The position numbers were made by a program, and so were the translations under genes. A stretch of 63,067 nucleotides of DNA, the filler included. It is 5 parts of 5 records of this genome, joined end to end, with 100 filler letters (N's around TTAATTAATTAA, not from the genome) between each part and the next. Parts side by side here need not be neighbours in the genome. Positions count along the whole stretch, not along the records: positions 55,871 to 63,067 come from SRR31156797_12005; 4 more parts are not named here. One strand, given 5' to 3'. Position 1 is the first letter of the stretch. Every line of letters begins with the position of its first letter. Of the stretch, positions 27,209 through 63,067 are shown piece by piece. Under the pieces are notes generated by a model that worked only from the letters and a program-made list of their open reading frames with translations, was not told the DNA's origin and did not search any database.

Positions 27209-27308
27209 NNNNNNNNNNNNNNNNNNNNNNNNNNNNNNNNNNNNNNNNNNNNTTAATTAATTAANNNNNNNNNNNNNNNNNNNNNNNNNNNNNNNNNNNN
27301 NNNNNNNN
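27209..27308. other. Artificial contig spacer
   Basis: 44 N + TTAATTAATTAA + 44 N; gene style changes across it. Confidence 0.98.
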
Positions 27309-35447: not shown

Positions 35448-35547
35448 NNNNNNNNNNNNNNNNNNNNNNNNNNNNNNNNNNNNNNNNNNNNTTAATTAAT
35501 TAANNNNNNNNNNNNNNNNNNNNNNNNNNNNNNNNNNNNNNNNNNNN
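35448..35547. other. Artificial contig spacer
   Basis: N run + TTAATTAATTAA; GC content jumps sharply. Confidence 0.98.
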
Positions 35548-45393: not shown

Positions 45394-45493
45394 NNNNNNN
45401 NNNNNNNNNNNNNNNNNNNNNNNNNNNNNNNNNNNNNTTAATTAATTAANNNNNNNNNNNNNNNNNNNNNNNNNNNNNNNNNNNNNNNNNNNN
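45394..45493. other. Artificial contig spacer
   Basis: N run + TTAATTAATTAA. Confidence 0.98.
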
Positions 45494-50869: not shown

Positions 50870-51237
50870 CTGCATTCTCCTTTTTGTTACTATAACAAAA
50901 GTGGTTTTTGGTGAATAGAATGATATTGACTTTTGACTATTTTTCTTGATGGAAGGCCCTTGATTGGGACTGAGAAAAGGGACTGGAGAATGTCGGGAAA
51001 GAGCGGATCAGCCTTGAAGAAAGAACAGCAGTATATTTTGACGATTCTATGGAATGAATCAAAGCAAATAGACCATGCACCGTGAAAAAAATAACGATAA
51101 ATCCTTGGTATTTGAAAGTTTTATTGATGGAAGTATGGTACCATTTGACTGCAGTAAAGTTTGTGACGGTAGCTATCTTTGAAAGGTGGTGGTGCTTATG
51201 AATGTAAGTACTAACTCTTCAGAAAGGAGAAGCCTTT

Positions 51238-51342
51238 TTGTCCACAGCGGAAGCAATCGGGCTAATGATCAGTTTTGGTACATTTACCGCCATGCTGATC
51301 TTTGGTATCCTAGCCGCAGTGAAAAATGACAAAAAAAAATAA
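51238..51342 (+). CDS. txpA: TxpA-like / holin-like type I toxin (34 aa)
   Basis: Not in ORF track. GAAAGGAG RBS, TTG start: MSTAEAIGLMISFGTFTAMLIFGILAAVKNDKKK; one TM helix plus basic tail. Confidence 0.85.
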   Translation: MSTAEAIGLMISFGTFTAMLIFGILAAVKNDKKK

Positions 51343-55770: not shown

Positions 55771-55870
55771 NNNNNNNNNNNNNNNNNNNNNNNNNNNNNN
55801 NNNNNNNNNNNNNNTTAATTAATTAANNNNNNNNNNNNNNNNNNNNNNNNNNNNNNNNNNNNNNNNNNNN
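55771..55870. other. Artificial contig spacer
   Basis: N run + TTAATTAATTAA. Confidence 0.98.
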
Positions 55871-55944
55871 GGATCTTCATACTCGTGCGTCAGTACTGGC
55901 CGTGAACGTCATGTCCACCCGGGTGGAGAAAGGGGCTGATTAGG

Positions 55945-56271
55945 ATGAAAGCGTTGCGTAAGGCCGATTTCGAGGCGGAAATTTTGGGGAGCGACCTTCC
56001 CGTTGTCGTTGAAATATGGGGAGATTGGTGAGCCACCTGTCAGATATTGACGGCTCAGGTTGAGACCCTCGCAAAGGAAGAGTACAGGGGAAAAGTCAAT
56101 TTTTATGTTGTGAACGCCGCCGCGGACCGGGCTCTCATAGACTTCTTGAATATCAAAGGCGTTCCGTCATTTTTATTTTACAAAAACGGTCAGCTTTACG
56201 ACACTTTGTCGGGCAATCATCTCAAGAAAGATAATGTCAGAGATAAAACGGATGAGTTGTTGTTTTCTTGA
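55945..56271 (+). CDS. Selenocysteine-containing thioredoxin (WGDW-U-ATC), 108 aa
   Basis: ATG 55945: MKALRKADFEAEILGSDLPVVVEIWGDW-TGA(56029-56031)-ATCQ..., in frame with GVPSFLFYKNG; TGA at first Cys of CxxC. Confidence 0.88.
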
Positions 56272-56284
56272 ACTTGAAGACATT

Positions 56285-57109
56285 TTATGGTGTGTAATCT
56301 CCGGGTTTCATGGTTTTCACCTTCTTCAGTACCTGAAGCGATTTTTCCAGATCTCCGGGATCGAAGACTTCCAGATTGAGGATTCCGGTATACCCATAAT
56401 CATCTAGACAATGAAACCAGGATTGCACCCTTTCCACCGGCAACACGTCCAACCCCAGATGCTCATCCCACCCCGTAACGCCATGGATATGAATTTCCTT
56501 GATCACCGGCAAATATCGCCTCAGTGTTTCCCCAACCGATTCCTTGCCCAATAGCAGGTGTCCGATATCCAGGCACAATGCACAAAGGCCTTGCCGCCGG
56601 ATGAATTCCAGCAAATCGGGGCTGTAGTTGATATTTTCCAACAGAAGCCTTTGAAACAGTCCTGTCTCTGCTTGAATATGTTCAAGGCTCGTTACGGCCC
56701 TGTCTGCCCAGGCAGCATACATGAACCGGTCTTTGTCCATGATGTAGCATCCGGGCTCCGCGGTCAGGGTCGGTGTGGTGATGGGAATGTGAAGAATGTG
56801 ATACTCGGGAGCAAGTTCATTTAATTGTGCAATGATTTTTGTTGCCATGCCGACAGCAACATCCCGTTTCAGCTCACTTTCCGCTGCAATTTCAAGGGAG
56901 GCGGGCAAATGGACGGAATAGGTTAAATTATGTTCTGATTTTATCTCTTTCAGGGAAAGAATCTCTTCCGCTGTTGGAATATTATGAAGTTCCGGCGTAT
57001 GAAAAATGACAATTTCAATGTGGTTGACAATATGGGAAAGTCTTTTGACGTTTTCGATCAGATCCATGCCGAAAACCATGGATGGCGCACTGATAACAGG
57101 TGGACGCAT
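56285..57109 (-). CDS. AP-endonuclease-2/TIM-barrel protein, CbiR-like cobamide remodelling phosphodiesterase
   Basis: VHLP, LLENI, CLDIGH, HIHG..DEH, LEVF; corrinoid gene context; start ATG 57109. Confidence 0.7.
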   Translation of the reverse strand: MRPPVISAPSMVFGMDLIENVKRLSHIVNHIEIVIFHTPELHNIPTAEEILSLKEIKSEHNLTYSVHLPASLEIAAESELKRDVAVGMATKIIAQLNELAPEYHILHIPITTPTLTAEPGCYIMDKDRFMYAAWADRAVTSLEHIQAETGLFQRLLLENINYSPDLLEFIRRQGLCALCLDIGHLLLGKESVGETLRRYLPVIKEIHIHGVTGWDEHLGLDVLPVERVQSWFHCLDDYGYTGILNLEVFDPGDLEKSLQVLKKVKTMKPGDYTP

Positions 57110-57194
57110 TGATGCCCCCGAATGATTTGATGCCTTGTGAGATTTGAAAAGAAGTGACTTCCACAAATCAAGAACAGGAGTTCCGATGGCGCCA

Positions 57195-57392
57195 TCAGGC
57201 TTCGGCCATGGCTTCCTGAACAAGGTCCCTTAAACAGTGGGGAAAACGTTTTATGATCGGTTCCGTGACCCTGTTTTTATGTTCCAATACACACTCACAA
57301 CAAAGACCGTGTCTTGGGCATTCCGTCTTTGGACAGGAACAATATTCGTTTATGTTTGTCCTGACCGGGCACGCTATGTCGTTTTTTTCCAT
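57195..57392 (-). CDS. Small Cys-rich protein (DUF6485-like)
   Basis: CSCPKTECPRHGLCCECV..H...PHC; GGGAGG RBS. Confidence 0.78.
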   Translation of the reverse strand: MEKNDIACPVRTNINEYCSCPKTECPRHGLCCECVLEHKNRVTEPIIKRFPHCLRDLVQEAMAEA

Positions 57393-57549
57393 CCTATGCC
57401 TCCCTCGTAGCAGTATTTATGGGGAGAGCTACCACAAATCCGGGTAAATTGAAATTAGAAAAGGGTATATTTTTAATGGAGAAGATGATACCAAGGATCG
57501 TGCTCTGCGGCATTATCATTTCGGAAACTCCAAGATCAGGAGGTGTATA

Positions 57550-58056
57550 ATGACGGAAGATTATCAGCAACTGATTGACAAATGCATTCAAATGGGGGCG
57601 GACGATGCAAAGTTGATTGAAACCGCTCAAGTTGTTTTTGACCCTCGCTCCCACCTGAAATGCCGCTTCGGGTGCAATCGCTGGGGGAAATTCTGGACCT
57701 GTCCTCCCCACAACGGCATTTCCCAGGAAATGTTCATGGAATCTTTCGAAAAATACGATGTGGGGCTGGTGATTAAAACGGCCGATCCCAAACTGGGCCA
57801 GGATATATCCCTTGCCGTTGAGAAGGAGGCCCTTCTTTCCCACGGTGCTGCCTTTGCCTTTGCCCTGGCTTTGTGTGTGAAATGTGATGAATGTTCCTAC
57901 CCTGATCCCTGTCTCTTTCCGGGTGATGCCCGCCCATCCATGGATGCTTACGGCATGGATATCGGGAAAACCGTTGCCACCTTGGACTTTAAGGTCGAGT
58001 TCAATGAAGAGGGGCAACTTCTTCCCGCCTGGTATTCCATGGTTTTGTTGGACTGA
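57550..58056 (+). CDS. DUF2284 metal-binding protein
   Basis: KC.FGC..WG..WTCPP; C..C..C; RPSMDAYGMD. Confidence 0.9.
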   Translation: MTEDYQQLIDKCIQMGADDAKLIETAQVVFDPRSHLKCRFGCNRWGKFWTCPPHNGISQEMFMESFEKYDVGLVIKTADPKLGQDISLAVEKEALLSHGAAFAFALALCVKCDECSYPDPCLFPGDARPSMDAYGMDIGKTVATLDFKVEFNEEGQLLPAWYSMVLLD

Positions 58057-58097
58057 TATATTGCGTTGCCGTCCGGTGAAGTCTTGTTGAAAGGGAA

Positions 58098-58754
58098 ATG
58101 AATATGTCCGTGGGGGTTATTTGCTGCCGTGTTCTTGAAGCCGAGATGAGAACGGTCATTCAGGATTTTCCGGATGTTTCTCATTTGGAAATCATGGAAT
58201 GGGGGCTTCATATCGAGCCGGATCTGCTTCTTGAAACCGTGACCGCGAAGATTATGGCGCTCCAGGAAAAAGTGGACGTCATTGTCTTAGGTTATGGCCG
58301 TTGTCAGATTCTGGATCAGCTTTCCGATGGTTTCAACGTTCCCGTCTTTCGTCCCCAAGCAGATGACTGTATCGGTGTTCTTCTTGGGCAGGAGCAATAC
58401 GAAAAAGCGCTTCTGGAAGAGGGGGGGACATGGTTCTTTACCCCCGGATGGACCGAGCTGGGAATGGATTTTATTTTTCATGAACTTCAACTCAGCCGGT
58501 TGGGGGAAAAGGGCTTGGATCCCATGCAATTGGCCCAGCGCATGTTAAAGGATTTTACGCGGGGGCTCTTTGTTGAAGTCAATTCGGGGGATCATGAAGA
58601 ATTGGAAAAAAAGGCACGGGAGATATCCAAAACCTTTAACCTGAGGTTCGAGAAAAAACCGGGGACGCTTTCCGTGCTTCGGAATACCCTCAATGCGGCA
58701 AGGAAAATGGTATCCCCGGGAAATGGCGTGGTTTCCACGGCGAGGAGGTGCTGA
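58098..58754 (+). CDS. DUF1638 domain protein
   Basis: ICC.VLE.E, GLH..PD.L, LGYG.C, DDCI.VLLG, FFTPGW. Confidence 0.88.
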   Translation: MNMSVGVICCRVLEAEMRTVIQDFPDVSHLEIMEWGLHIEPDLLLETVTAKIMALQEKVDVIVLGYGRCQILDQLSDGFNVPVFRPQADDCIGVLLGQEQYEKALLEEGGTWFFTPGWTELGMDFIFHELQLSRLGEKGLDPMQLAQRMLKDFTRGLFVEVNSGDHEELEKKAREISKTFNLRFEKKPGTLSVLRNTLNAARKMVSPGNGVVSTARRC

Positions 58755-59800
58755 TGACCCCTTTGGAAAGATTCATGGCCGCTGTTCAGTTTAAAGAGGC
58801 GGACCGCGTACCCTGTGTGCCGCTCATCTGCGGTGCCTCCAGGAGAATTTATGGATGCAACTTTGAAGAATGGTCCACGAGTGCCGATATTGCAGCCGGG
58901 GCACTGCTTCAGGCTCAGGAACTCTTTGGATTCGATGCTATTTTAACCGAGATCGATCTCAATGTGGAAGCCTCCGACCTGGGCCAGGAAACGCTGTTTT
59001 CTCCCGATGATCAGGCTTGTTCAAATTTCCAAAATTCGTTCATCAAAAAACCTCAAGATTATCTGACGAAAATTAAACCGGTTGACCCTTCAAAAACGGA
59101 ACGGATGTCCGAACATATTCGAATGTGCGACATCCTTATGAATGAAGCTGGAAAAAAAGTCCCGGTCTTTGGTTTTGTCTATGGCCCCTTGGGTGTTCTG
59201 TCCGTCCTGCGGGGACCTGAATTGCTTTTCTCCGACTGTATGAAATACCCGGAAGAGGTACAACATGCACTCTCCATTATCACCCATATGCTGGGAGACT
59301 ATATTCGTGCGCTTGCAAAAACCGGGATACATGCCATATGGATGGAGACACTGTTCGGTTGTCACAAGCAGATGAGTAAGAAATTCTGGTTGGAGACCGA
59401 AGGTGTTCATCTGCAGCGACTTGCCGAGGTTATTCGAGAGTGCGGTCTTATGCTGATCGCACACAGTTCCGGCGTGGACTTCTATCTCGATGCCCACATG
59501 GAAACCATGGCCCCTGATGCCATTTCCTGCGCCTGGCTTCCGGATGGGTTTTCAGACTGGCCCCAGGTTAAGCAAACGTGTGCCGAAAAGGTTTGCATTA
59601 TGGGCCATGTCCATCCCATTGATTGTCTTTACCTGGGTCGTGCGGAGGAGGTCAGGGAGGAATGTAAAAACCAGATTGGGGAAATGGCCCAGGGTGGGGG
59701 GTTTGTTCTGGCCCCCGGATGGGAATTCCCCTACGATGCATCCCTGCTCAACGCAAAGGCCATGATGGACGCCGCAACGCTTTATGGGAAATATGCATAA
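58754..59800 (+). CDS. URO-D superfamily methylcobamide methyltransferase (MtaA/CmuA, MT2-like)
   Basis: MTPLERF..A......DRVP, DL.VEA, GP, GGGFVLAPG; Zn motif altered (AHSSG; APGWE). Confidence 0.85.
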   Translation: MTPLERFMAAVQFKEADRVPCVPLICGASRRIYGCNFEEWSTSADIAAGALLQAQELFGFDAILTEIDLNVEASDLGQETLFSPDDQACSNFQNSFIKKPQDYLTKIKPVDPSKTERMSEHIRMCDILMNEAGKKVPVFGFVYGPLGVLSVLRGPELLFSDCMKYPEEVQHALSIITHMLGDYIRALAKTGIHAIWMETLFGCHKQMSKKFWLETEGVHLQRLAEVIRECGLMLIAHSSGVDFYLDAHMETMAPDAISCAWLPDGFSDWPQVKQTCAEKVCIMGHVHPIDCLYLGRAEEVREECKNQIGEMAQGGGFVLAPGWEFPYDASLLNAKAMMDAATLYGKYA

Positions 59801-59818
59801 AGTTTGCAGAAAGCGCCA

Positions 59819-60577
59819 TTACGAGGACCCGGGCTTTTCCCCACGGAACAAAACACCTTTGGTTTTGGGTGTGCTGTTAAAGCCCGTTTCTCCAACAAGT
59901 TCGGCTTTTTCAAAGCCGACGCTTTTTAACAGAGCCAGGAAATCCATTCCCGGTATGGTACCGCCTTCTCACTGAAACCAACCGGCAAGACGGGCCTTCA
60001 TGTCCATTTTTATGCCGCCGGAAGCAACCTGGTCCGCCACCATCAGTCGCCCTCCGGGTTTTAGGACCCTGAAGATTTCCGTCAAAGCACTTTCTTTGTC
60101 GGGGATCAAGTTGATGGCCCCGTTACTAATCACCACTTCAAATGACTCGTCGGGAAACGGCAGATTTTCACCGGACGATTTTTTAAACGTAACATTTTTA
60201 AGGCCGGTCATTTTTAGGTTGGTTTCTGCGCGTGCAAGCATTTCCGGCACAATGTCCACCCCAACCACATGTCCCCTCTCCCCGGTCATCATGGCGGCCA
60301 GAATTGCCTCCACGCCTGCGCCGCAGCCGATATCCAGGATCTGATCTCCGGTATTGATTTTGCCCAAAGAATATGGATTCCCCACACCACAGTAGGTGGA
60401 AGCGACGGCATCCGGCAGTCTATCAATCAACGTTTGGTCATAATTGAGTGTTTCAAGACCTTTTTTGCCTGTGGGGTATATGAATTGTCCTTCGGGGCTT
60501 TTTGCAACGCCGATGTATTTTTCACGAATGCCCGCTTCGATTTTTTCAAGGTCATCCATGGTGATTTGAAAATCCAT
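59819..60577 (-). CDS. Selenocysteine-containing ArsM-like SAM methyltransferase, 252 aa
   Basis: YCGVGNP, LDIGCGAG, VISNG, LKPGG; TGA 59969-59971 in GWFQ-U-EGG; frame continues 49 codons (GMDFLALLKSVGFEKAE...) to TAA 59819. Confidence 0.82.
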
Positions 60578-61100
60578 GATTCTATTTCCTCCAATATGGC
60601 AATGGCAAGATCACACAGCATGCACCCTTTCTGTTTGGCAACGATTTCGATCATTGTTTTTTGGGGGGTCATATGCCGATTATCCTTTTCGGTTCCCAAA
60701 TAAAAAATTGTTTATCCCCAAATCTTTTCATTCGGAGAAAAGAGATGGGGTTTTAAGCATCTAAGCTTCAGGCTGCTTTAAGGCGCATTTATAAAACATA
60801 TAAATATATATTTATATATTGTCAACATATGTGTAAAAAAATCCGCCGAAAGGCAGGGCTTTTTTTACACGGGAGATGGCAGGTTCAGCGATTACGGCAT
60901 TAAAGATTTCAAGCTTTCGCCCTCCGTCGTCGCACGCCCCCCTGGTCCACAATGGGAAAGACGGGCGTATCGTCACCGATTTGGGCTTCGGTCGGGAGAA
61001 ACTCCACGTAGGGGATCTTCTTTTGGGAGCAGCTTTCTTTGCGGAGGGGGAACTTCATCGGGGGATCGGTTTTGCCGATCCCCCGAGAAGAAAAGCGCCG

Positions 61101-61136
61101 GCCCCGGTGCGCCGTTGTTGACCGGCGGCACCGGGG
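61101..61136 (-). terminator. GC-rich hairpin just downstream of mtaA-like gene
   Basis: CCCCGGTGC..GCCG / CGGC..GCACCGGGG stem. Confidence 0.55.
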
Positions 61137-61147
61137 TGAATGCGTGA

Positions 61148-62200
61148 TTACAGACGTCCCACGGCCGGGCTCGGTCCTTTACCGTATTCCCTGGCCGTCT
61201 TTACGATGGCACGCATGTTTTCTTCCTTGATGTCCGGCCACAGATCGCATCCGGGCCACACAGCGTCCACACCGCCGTCGATGTTGGTTTTGATGCCTTC
61301 TATGGCTTCTTCCACTGTGGTCTCTTCCTTGCAGGGAAGTTCAAACACGTCAAAGTTTCCGAACAGGAGCACGTCGTCGCCCAGTTTTTTGCGTGATTCA
61401 ACCAGATTATTCTTGATGTCCACACTGAGGGCGTCCGCGCCGCACTCGTTCATCATTTCGATGATCAGGTCCGTGGCGCCGCAGATGTGCAGCACTTTGG
61501 GGGATTCCCATGCATCGAGGATTTTTTTCACGCGGGGCTGGATCATCTTTTTCCAGGTTCTCGGGCTGAGCAGATCCGAACCGGTGGCCATCTCGCGCAG
61601 GGTGATATAGTCAGCGCCGGCGGCCTGATAGGCTTTACCCACTTCGATGATCATGTCGGTGATTTGATCAAGGGCTCTTTCGACGAGGTCCTTCTGTTTG
61701 AACACGCCTTTGAGCAGAACATCGAGCTCCAGGAGCTGACCGGCCATGGTGAACGGTCCGAGCTGCCACGCACCGATGGCGTGGTCGGGGGCTTCTTTTT
61801 TAGCGATTTTGATGGCTTCAACGACCATGGGCATGCGGCCTTTTTCCATGATACCTGCGGGGATATCTAACTGATCCAGCTGTTTCCATATTTTTTCCGG
61901 GATGGTGGGATAGAGAATATCCATGGAATTTTCATACAGGCTGATGGTATTGCCGAGGGCTTCCGATTCGCAGGTCATGTCGAAAGGAACGATCACCGAA
62001 TCAAAATCAAACATCTTGGCGGAAAGCACGGCCGCCTGGGCAAGTTTGTTTGCATCGGTGTGCACCGTGGGGAAGGCATAGCCCAGTTCATTAATGGCCG
62101 GCATCACCACCATGCCGTAACCGCTGAAAAACGGCATGGTATCAACGGGTTCTTTTTTGAAAACTCTCATGACTCTTTCTTTAGGTGTTAACGCTGCCAT
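61148..62200 (-). CDS. MtaA/CmuA family methylcobamide:thiol methyltransferase (MT2)
   Basis: PFDMTCESEALG, GPFT, LHICG and PGC zinc ligands intact; AAGGAG RBS, ATG 62200. Confidence 0.9.
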   Translation of the reverse strand: MAALTPKERVMRVFKKEPVDTMPFFSGYGMVVMPAINELGYAFPTVHTDANKLAQAAVLSAKMFDFDSVIVPFDMTCESEALGNTISLYENSMDILYPTIPEKIWKQLDQLDIPAGIMEKGRMPMVVEAIKIAKKEAPDHAIGAWQLGPFTMAGQLLELDVLLKGVFKQKDLVERALDQITDMIIEVGKAYQAAGADYITLREMATGSDLLSPRTWKKMIQPRVKKILDAWESPKVLHICGATDLIIEMMNECGADALSVDIKNNLVESRKKLGDDVLLFGNFDVFELPCKEETTVEEAIEGIKTNIDGGVDAVWPGCDLWPDIKEENMRAIVKTAREYGKGPSPAVGRL

Positions 62201-62757
62201 AAAATATTTGCTCCTTTTTTCAATGTTACCCAAATTGAACCATTTGTATTTTGGAAATGGTTGAAGTCGAAATAGAAACTATTCTCTCTAAGTTTCCGTG
62301 GCAACCACCTCTGAGGTGGGCGGCCTAAAAAAATCGCTCAAATTGAGTGTTGGTAGATTGGTTTCCGGGTTCAGGTCCACGGGATTACCGTGGCCATGAT
62401 ATCGATGCACCAGCAATGGCATGATCGAACACCGAACGCTTTCCATTGTTGCCCATTCACAGAACCGCTACTAAAACCATATTCAGCGCATCCAGTCAAC
62501 TAGCGTTTAGACGAATTTTGATGGTTCATGGGTCTAATTTTGGAGAATATCGGGTCTATACAACTCAAACAATATCCCCTCGCGAATACGGGACCCGGAA
62601 TTATAAATTTCAAAACGGGTAATTTTCTCCCGTTAGGGGTATTATTACCCGAAATTCAATATCTTTAATGATATTAATAAATTATGGCAAAATGCCCTCA
62701 GCTTATGCTACAAAATACCCCAAAACTATCCGCATTCATGTGCGCCATTAATCTCAT

Positions 62758-62815
62758 TAAATAATTGATTTATATTGTAAAAGGCAAAATATTGGAAGCA
62801 GGCGCGGAATTTGCA
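62758..62815 (+). promoter_or_regulatory. IHF site plus sigma-54 (-24/-12) promoter
   Basis: AATCAA-TTAT-TTA on minus strand (62758-62770) matches WATCAANNNNTTR; AGGCGCGGAATTTGCA with GG-N10-GC at 62801-62814. Confidence 0.7.
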
Positions 62816-63056
62816 TCAAAGCGGCCAAAAAGGGAAACGTAACACCGTTTTCAGGAAATCTTATATGGGGTTTGATAAGCCCCGATATCCTTATGGGAGC
62901 ACAAGCAACCCAAAATGCACCCTTGGGTGTGTTTTCCCCTATCAGGATGTTTGAGCGATTTCCCGTCAGTTATGGAGAAAGGAGGTGTTGATGTAAGATC
63001 ATCAGAATCGAGTGTCAATCTTTTAAATGAAAAAGCGGTAAGAAAGGAGAGTCCAA

Positions 63057-63067
63057 ATGGCTAAGCA
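63057..63067 (+). CDS. Start of a gene (MAK...), truncated
   Basis: AAAGGAGA RBS followed by ATGGCTAAG at window end. Confidence 0.55.

Follow-up and report, generated by a model that had tools for sequence, protein, structure and literature searches.

A stand-alone methyltransferase of the ArsM/AS3MT superfamily with a predicted selenocysteine at the C-terminal metalloid-binding position

Is an in-frame TGA near the end of a small methyltransferase gene a stop codon, or is it read as selenocysteine (Sec), and what would an enzyme with Sec at this place act on? The gene that raises the question lies on the minus strand in a window of 63,067 nucleotides, the whole stretch of DNA that was analyzed, which is made up of five unrelated contigs, between which spacers of 100 nt (44 N, TTAATTAATTAA, 44 N) lie at 27209-27308, 35448-35547, 45394-45493 and 55771-55870. 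The GC content of the contigs (about 0.32, 0.35, 0.61, 0.39 and 0.49, in order) jumps at the spacers, and only the last contig, 55871-63067 (7.2 kb, GC about 0.49), which carries the gene, belongs with the finding. Taken as a whole, the likely explanation is that the gene encodes a methyltransferase of the ArsM/AS3MT superfamily with Sec at residue 203, that Sec is inserted under the direction of a selenocysteine insertion sequence (SECIS) element, and that Sec203 and Cys63 hold a soft substrate. We are highly confident, at the least, that the gene is a genuine selenoprotein methyltransferase; the insertion of Sec at the UGA is itself predicted from sequence.

Conventional translation with table 11 gives an open reading frame (ORF) at 59969..60577 (minus strand) that starts at ATG 60577 and encodes 202 amino acids ending in ...LAGWFQ. 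After the TGA the frame stays open and translates as EGGTIPGMDFLALLKSVGFEKAELVGETGFNSTPKTKGVLFRGEKPGSS, up to a TAA at 59821..59819. A first-pass annotation, made from the sequence alone, had placed the TGA at 59971..59969 and had counted 49 further codons, and all of these statements agree with our translation; the motifs YCGVGNP (with Cys63) and SNGAIN (with Gly153) are also present as it described them. The features of the gene are the following.

60588..60592, minus strand: ribosome-binding site GGAGG, 10 nt ahead of ATG 60577
60577..59819, minus strand: complete gene for a 252-aa S-adenosylmethionine (SAM)-dependent methyltransferase with putative Sec203, including the TAA stop 59821..59819
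60389..60391, minus strand: codon for Cys63 (YCGVGNP), two residues ahead of the canonical ArsM Cys
60314..60340, minus strand: SAM-binding motif I, ILDIGCGAG, residues 80-88, from the frame translation
60119..60121, minus strand: codon for Gly153 (SNGAINL), which replaces the canonical SNC Cys
59971..59969, minus strand: in-frame TGA, codon 203, motif U-E-G-G = UxxG, aligned with Cys in PDB entries of ArsM/AS3MT and in homologs
59822..59968, minus strand: post-UGA extension, 49 codons, residues 204-252, with a predicted helix at 210-220 and strands at 223-230 and 239-247
59953..59935, minus strand: SECIS-like hairpin CCGGGAA-UGGAU-UUCCUGG, 7-bp stem, starting 15 nt past the UGA

Residues D82, G84, G86 and G88 of motif I are invariant across 60 sequences, and position 1 of the NCBIfam model aligns with residue 1 of the methyltransferase.

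The 49 codons after the UGA are at least as conserved as the rest of the protein. Identity in the extension and in the N-terminal part was 35/45 and 139/202 for homolog P0004, 37/49 and 127/202 for Desulfosarcina widdelii, and 33/49 and 113/202 for P0084; for the two closest full-length relatives this amounts to 76-78% in the extension and 63-69% upstream of it. Position 203 is occupied by Cys in 35 of the 38 full-length homologs, by Trp in two, and by Ala in one, a poorly aligned row. One of the Cys-containing homologs, P0004, is 71% identical to our protein and reads NWFQCEGGA. A conserved extension and a Cys at the aligned residue, the two properties on which the first-pass annotation had made its reading depend, were both found.

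DNA from two relatives shows a TGA at the same codon. In the D. widdelii PP31 ortholog (L001, 6001..7377, plus strand) codon 203 is TGA, the protein runs 255 codons past it to a total of 458 residues, and a second TGA stands at codon 396; this protein scores 829.6 bits against NF041536, for which the cut-off is 575. A Desulfosarcina metagenome-assembled genome (L002) also has TGA at codon 203. The AlphaFold2 model of the 252-aa protein, built on 60 sequences, has a mean predicted local distance difference test score (pLDDT) of 95.5 and a predicted template modeling score (pTM) of 0.93; by block, pLDDT is 90-98 across residues 201-250 and drops to 79 at the two final residues. The extension supplies a helix and two strands of this model, and a protein that ended at residue 202 would be expected to miss part of the core.

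These data bear directly on the possibility that the TGA is a true stop, with a 202-aa product and a downstream frame that is either a decaying remnant or open by chance. Database annotation agrees with a stop, in that the annotated proteins of 117 among the 120 closest homologs end there, exactly at xWF[QHKR] as judged by the protein ends and not by the codon in the DNA; of the other three, one has Cys, one has Trp and continues into a DUF2284 domain, and one has a different end. It also agrees with a stop that no Sec machinery is visible on the contig. A remnant or a chance frame, however, is at odds with an extension that is more conserved than the upstream part and that is modeled as a helix and two core strands with pLDDT of 90-98, with the existence of full-length Cys-containing homologs, with a D. 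widdelii gene that continues for 255 codons past its TGA into a domain scored by a family model, and with a hairpin conserved at synonymous sites. We regard a true stop as very improbable.

Alternatively, the UGA could be read as Trp or another standard residue under an altered genetic code. Three database entries (P0084, P0126 and P0141) carry Trp at the Sec position and so speak for such a code; these rows are most simply explained as, and probably are, translations of TGA as W by gene callers. TGA is the ordinary stop of four other ORFs on the contig (those for thioredoxin, a Cys-rich small protein, DUF2284 and DUF1638), which it ends at family-typical lengths (168 aa for DUF2284 homologs, for example), so a code in which TGA means Trp is excluded. 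Homologs, moreover, align Cys at this position and not Trp. An altered code is therefore scarcely credible as an explanation of this UGA.

If the UGA is decoded as Sec, a SECIS element is expected just downstream of it. The hairpin at 59953..59935 has a UGA-to-loop distance of 22 nt and a folding energy of -8.9 kcal/mol when folded alone, and it is the centroid structure in both 60- and 80-nt folds. Published rules for bacterial SECIS (bSECIS) elements give a loop of 3-9 nt, a stem of 4-16 bp, a G in the first two loop positions, a UGA-to-loop distance of 16-37 nt and an energy <= -7.5 kcal/mol (PMC13188914, Fig. 2 legend). The hairpin agrees with all four bSECIS rules, its UGGAU loop having G at position 2, followed by another G. 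In a comparison of three DNA sequences (the window, L001 and L002), effectively two, the hairpin in L001 and L002 has the same sequence save for the first loop base, though the proteins are only 65% identical. Codons for shared residues are identical at 7 of 8 places in codons 208-216 versus 56 of 159 gene-wide, and this interval is the gene-wide maximum. The second Sec codon of L001 is followed, at the equal offset of 15 nt, by a hairpin GAAGGUC-CGUGC-GACCUUC.

The first-pass annotation had named a different hairpin, CGGTA-CCA-TACCG (CGGUA-CCA-UACCG in the RNA). It exists, at 59963..59951 on the minus strand, but it is not likely to be the SECIS element: its energy is -3.3 kcal/mol, its loop has no G, it starts 5 nt past the UGA, and it is not kept in L001, where the equivalent place gives -0.1 kcal/mol. 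We conclude that this hairpin is probably neither the SECIS element nor functional. The stronger, conserved hairpin at 59953..59935, which agrees with the published rules, lies just behind the one that was named.

What kind of methyltransferase is it? Pfam recognizes only generic class-I methyltransferase domains (Methyltransf_31, E=8e-33). Among NCBIfam models, the best three matches are 'exception' models for fused multi-Sec proteins, and no NCBIfam cut-off was reached: NF041536 (ArsM/DUF2284 double selenoprotein) gave 430.6 bits over model positions 1-250 of 459 (cut-off 575), and over residues 1-250 NF041537 (ArsM/AhpD) reached 368.6 of the required 510 bits and NF047649 (methyltransferase/UXPK-star) 309.2 of 460. 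The ArsM subfamily model NF008823 gave 183.6 bits (cut-off 263), and NF043040, for the corrinoid protein-associated methyltransferase CpaM, gave 71.3 bits (cut-off 180). In a Foldseek search with the predicted model, the top 12 PDB matches were all ArsM/AS3MT, at template modeling (TM) scores of 0.61-0.72; the matched chains have 300-333 residues and a third domain, which the 252-aa protein is without.

The protein is the stand-alone, single-Sec form of a selenoprotein family that is already known. Arsenite methyltransferase (UxxG, 1 Sec) stands among the experimentally verified selenoproteins in Table 1 of PMC13188914, which cites Fomenko et al. 2007 for it, and the same table has the three fused selenoprotein families, citing Haft & Tolstoy 2025; extracts of PMC9312934 and PMC2398784 also have an ArsM selenoprotein in their lists. 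The finding is less novel than the first-pass annotation suggests, since both the UxxG Sec and the three fused families are in that table and in NCBIfam.

Its relation to the known systems can be stated closely. It shares with the NF041536 type, represented by D. widdelii L001, a methyltransferase module that is 65% identical, the Cys63/Gly153/Sec203 set, the codon number of the TGA and the hairpin, but it is without the DUF2284/MbdU-like domain of ~200 aa and the second Sec in that domain. The module and its UxxG Sec are also common to NF041537 and NF047649, whose AhpD domain and UXPK tail, respectively, are missing here. The Sec arsenite methyltransferase of PMC13188914 has the same Sec position, a single Sec and a stand-alone form; that paper, however, assigns the family to NF008823, and our protein falls below the NF008823 cut-off. 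Canonical ArsM/AS3MT enzymes (CmArsM 4fr0/4fsd/6cx6, CrArsM 5evj, human AS3MT 8xt7) are alike in fold, in SAM motifs and in the C-terminal Cys/Sec, but are only 26-30% identical and differ in the middle ligand (Cys to Gly), in an N-terminal ligand that is two residues off, in the Cys that the 252-aa protein does not have in its first 62 residues, and in the third domain. NF043040 CpaM is likewise a class-I SAM methyltransferase beside corrinoid genes, but the similarity is that of methyltransferases in general.

A search for longer proteins gave no relative above 47% identity (the best-scoring was 40% identical) and no full-length Sec fusion; the ArsD, GNAT and CMD fusions that it returned are of the canonical SNC type. 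SNG-type relatives also occur fused to a DsbA-like domain (P0397). By analogy, the fusions to DsbA-like, AhpD, DUF2284/MbdU-like and UXPK partners suggest that the module generally acts together with a partner in redox or chalcogen chemistry.

Alignment to the PDB sequences pairs Sec203 with the motif Cys of CrArsM (5evj, 'geClaGa') and of human AS3MT (8xt7, 'wgeClGGa'), Gly153 with the Cys of SNCVINL, and Val65 with the Cys of 'fwGCGNP', Cys63 lying two residues earlier. The first-pass reading of an ArsM-like enzyme whose Sec takes the place of the C-terminal, metalloid-binding Cys is supported. Gly153 and Sec203 are 50 residues apart, as are the aligned Cys residues of 8xt7 (chain positions 119 and 169); by motif and spacing, Sec203 would thus correspond to Cys206 of human AS3MT, given an assumed numbering offset to the 8xt7 chain. 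We take the same position to be Cys224 of CmArsM. With this numbering, the equivalent of AS3MT Cys206 is present as Sec203, that of Cys156 is absent (Gly153 in SNGAINL), that of Cys32 is absent (there is no Cys in residues 1-62), and the third ligand, AS3MT Cys61 or CmArsM Cys72, aligns with Val65, the Cys being at 63 instead.

The altered Cys set is real and characterizes a whole clade. Among the closest 120 homologs CG[VIT]G is found in 120, SNG..N in 117 and SNC in none, so the different Cys set that the first-pass annotation had noted is genuine. A census of Cys classes, with rows taken from 150 representatives at 50% identity, gave 54 rows of the canonical class (Cys65/SNC/Cys203), 26 rows with no N-terminal Cys but with SNG and Cys203, and 25 rows with Cys63 and SNG, only one of which has Cys at 203. 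In a quick maximum-likelihood tree of 142 rows from 157 ids, from which the trait columns were excluded, as were rows with <125/154 core columns filled or without SN at 151-152, all 30 Cys63/SNG rows fell in one 38-row set (Shimodaira-Hasegawa-like approximate likelihood ratio test, SH-aLRT, 90). All 55 canonical rows fell on the other side of the midpoint split (support 86; deep support is modest), and trait labels as clustered as these occurred in 0/500 shuffles. Against NF008823 (cut-off 263), the canonical representative P0197 passes with 321.4 bits and the SNG representative P0160 fails with 219.8.

Predicted proteins end at positions 198-206 in 41 of 79 SNG rows versus 0 of 59 SNC rows, where the stops are read from protein ends and not from DNA and the sample is biased towards the type of the query, since truncated SNC forms would score lower. 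Use of Sec may therefore go with loss of the middle Cys, which we treat as a lead and not as a result.

Could the enzyme nevertheless be an ordinary ArsM that methylates inorganic As(III), with Sec merely replacing one Cys? Structurally it resembles ArsM/AS3MT most, the fused relatives go by 'arsenite methyltransferase/...' in NCBIfam, many homologs carry the JGI name arsenite methyltransferase, and the D. widdelii ortholog lies behind an ArsR-family regulator. Several points speak against this. According to an extract of PMC3877260, AS3MT requires Cys156 and Cys206 for both methylation steps, and the thiolates needed are three for inorganic As(III), two for monomethylated MAs(III) and one for dimethylated DMAs(III). 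Our protein has Gly at the Cys156 equivalent, as have 117 of the 120 closest homologs; it has no Cys32 equivalent, the third ligand has shifted by two residues, and NF008823 yields 183.6 bits where 263 are needed (canonical P0197, 321.4); at 252 aa, against 300-333 residues, it is also without the third ArsM domain. With the middle and the N-terminal Cys gone, a single chain is unlikely to carry out the full As(III) pathway, and this explanation as a whole is unlikely as well. The earlier statement that the enzyme is probably not a canonical arsenite methyltransferase is upheld by the missing Cys156 equivalent, the Cys-free residues 1-62 and the low NF008823 score. The idea of another substrate, also raised there, is conjectural.

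We propose instead the following mechanism for the Sec203 methyltransferase. The UGA at 59971..59969 would be decoded as Sec203, directed by the 7-bp, UGGAU-loop hairpin 15 nt downstream; termination at the UGA would delete a helix and the last two beta-strands. Sec203 would then sit at the metalloid-binding, redox-active Cys position of ArsM/AS3MT, in a distinct clade from which the second arsenic ligand (now Gly153) and the N-terminal Cys are gone and which carries Cys63 two residues ahead of the third-ligand site. A soft, thiol-binding substrate could be held by Sec203, probably with Cys63, beside the methyl group of SAM, and then methylated. Because the Cys156 equivalent and the N-terminal Cys are missing, a substrate with at most two ligands is more plausible. 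The leading candidate would be a trivalent metalloid species of this kind, for example a methylated arsenical, although we think it somewhat less likely than not that arsenic in any form is the substrate. A Se-S bond or another oxidized state might be reset by an outside reductant, perhaps the candidate Sec-thioredoxin encoded on the contig. Relatives in other organisms have a second Sec module (DUF2284/MbdU-like, AhpD-like or a UXPK tail) fused in cis, and here the methyltransferase module stands alone.

The neighbors of the gene on the contig are as follows.

55945..56271, plus strand: thioredoxin-like gene with W-TGA-A-T-C for WCxxC, TGA at 56029..56031 (Pfam Thioredoxin, E=6e-18 on read-through)
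56285..57223, minus strand: CbiR, a cobamide-remodelling phosphodiesterase (NF041277, 189.5 bits, cut-off 105)
57198-57392, minus strand: Cys-rich 65-aa ORF, no family match, just upstream of CbiR and overlapping its annotated start
57550..58056, plus strand: DUF2284, seven invariant Cys in an Fe-S-like pattern
58098..58754, plus strand: DUF1638, second gene, after DUF2284, of an apparent operon
58748..59800, plus strand: MtaA/CmuA-like gene, last of the DUF2284-DUF1638-MtaA run
60856..60843, minus strand: terminator-like site that separates the methyltransferase gene from the upstream MtaA-like gene
61148..62233, minus strand: second MtaA-like gene, upstream of the methyltransferase

The thioredoxin-like gene, 3.5 kb from the methyltransferase gene, has a hairpin GGCUCA-GGU-UGAG(A)CC 20 nt past its UGA and is a candidate for a second selenoprotein on the contig. 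As a second Sec candidate it lends indirect support to the presence of Sec machinery in the genome. The apparent DUF2284-DUF1638-MtaA operon (plus strand) converges on the methyltransferase gene (minus strand), and a terminator-like hairpin with a T-run, which would serve the converging operon, lies inside the methyltransferase extension at 59901-59919 (plus strand); it is not conserved in L001.

With such neighbors, a role in corrinoid-dependent methyl transfer has to be weighed, either as SAM-dependent (re)methylation or repair of a corrinoid protein or as methylation of the product of the MtaA-like neighbors. CbiR, DUF2284, DUF1638 and the two MtaA/CmuA-like genes point this way, as does the link of DUF1638 to B12 reactivation by genetic fitness data (extracts of PMC5764234 and PMC12478193). 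DUF2284 is fused to the methyltransferase module in relatives, co-occurrence of the methyltransferase with a stand-alone DUF2284 is suggested in two other assemblies (49,249 and 14,237 nt), and NCBIfam has a 'corrinoid protein-associated methyltransferase' family. The score against the model of that family, CpaM, is nevertheless 71.3 against a cut-off of 180, there is no corrinoid-binding protein on contig 55871-63067, the methyltransferase gene is convergent to the DUF2284-DUF1638-MtaA operon, and the D. widdelii ortholog is without corrinoid neighbors. Nor is the DUF2284 of the contig close to the fused domain, to which it is only 22% identical and from which it differs in Cys pattern. On this evidence a corrinoid role is quite unlikely.

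The two DUF2284 forms differ in the following way. The stand-alone protein, 1.8 kb from the methyltransferase gene and of family-typical length (168 aa), has CxxxC...C-P-P and CxxCxxCx5C, making up the seven invariant Cys. The fused domain of L001 keeps two of the first three Cys and has neither the C-P-P Cys nor the CxxCxxC cluster, which is replaced by the second Sec of L001 in ATUPSGEDEGPC (a U...C stretch); the MbdU double-selenoprotein model, too, recognizes this C-terminal domain, at 285 bits. The idea that the contig carries a split version of the fused gene is weakened, because its DUF2284 is only distantly paralogous to the fused domain and is of the Cys-rich type.

The fused gene of D. 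widdelii comes after genes for an ArsR-family regulator, an unknown ORF and a SHOCT protein, and before a DJ-1/PfpI gene. The surrounding island holds MerR, MerT, a CMD/AhpD-like gene, a ZIP transporter, multicopper oxidases and transposases, and it fits a metal(loid) role.

Several observations weigh against the explanation that we favor, a SECIS-directed Sec203 methyltransferase that holds a soft substrate by Sec203 and Cys63. The 7.2-kb contig has no selA, selB, selC or selD and no tRNA. Fold z-scores for the whole region are unremarkable (-0.43 and -0.97), and the stem allows no covariation test, there being three DNA sequences of which two are nearly identical. With Gly153 and no N-terminal Cys, the three-thiolate As(III) site, as an extract of PMC3877260 has it, cannot form in one chain. 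The genomic contexts disagree, with a cobamide/corrinoid cluster here and a metal-resistance island in D. widdelii; and the methyltransferase gene appears to be its own transcription unit, with a convergent neighbor on one side and the terminator-like site upstream.

Another possibility is that the Cys63/Gly153/Sec203 clade is a separate selenoenzyme family, nearly always mis-annotated as a 202-aa stub, which does not methylate arsenite and acts on another soft substrate held by Cys and Sec. Such a family may have given up the second arsenic ligand on gaining Sec, and its substrate may be, for example, a chalcogen or organometal species; it might work with CbiR, DUF2284, DUF1638 and the two MtaA-like genes, with the Sec-thioredoxin as external reductant. 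We consider this improbable.

The stand-alone form matters for annotation: of the 120 closest database entries, 117 stop at 202 aa, and the protein falls below every NCBIfam cut-off. A dedicated NCBIfam-type model would mend many entries together. The clade retains only the Cys/Sec that is common to all ArsM relatives and replaces a Cys that AS3MT needs for catalysis, and is thus a natural test of the role of the Sec position and of two-ligand substrates. Should it prove true that Sec use tracks loss of the middle Cys, the clade would clearly exemplify how Sec can make up for a missing ligand.

A few minor observations concern the start of the gene and the rest of the window. A promoter scan of the methyltransferase strand gave one site, ending 2 nt ahead of the ATG, against 1.7 expected by chance, and it was not used. 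A 90-aa ORF at 60427-60699 (minus strand), beginning MTPQKTMIEIVAKQKGCMLCDL... and having no Pfam match, overlaps the start of the methyltransferase gene in another frame; it may encode a short leader peptide or be open only by chance. Rfam gave no match on contig 55871-63067, either at gathering thresholds or at E<=1. On a different contig, positions 51129-51311 (plus strand) match the Listeria small RNA rli28 of Rfam with 69.3 bits, against a gathering score of 45.

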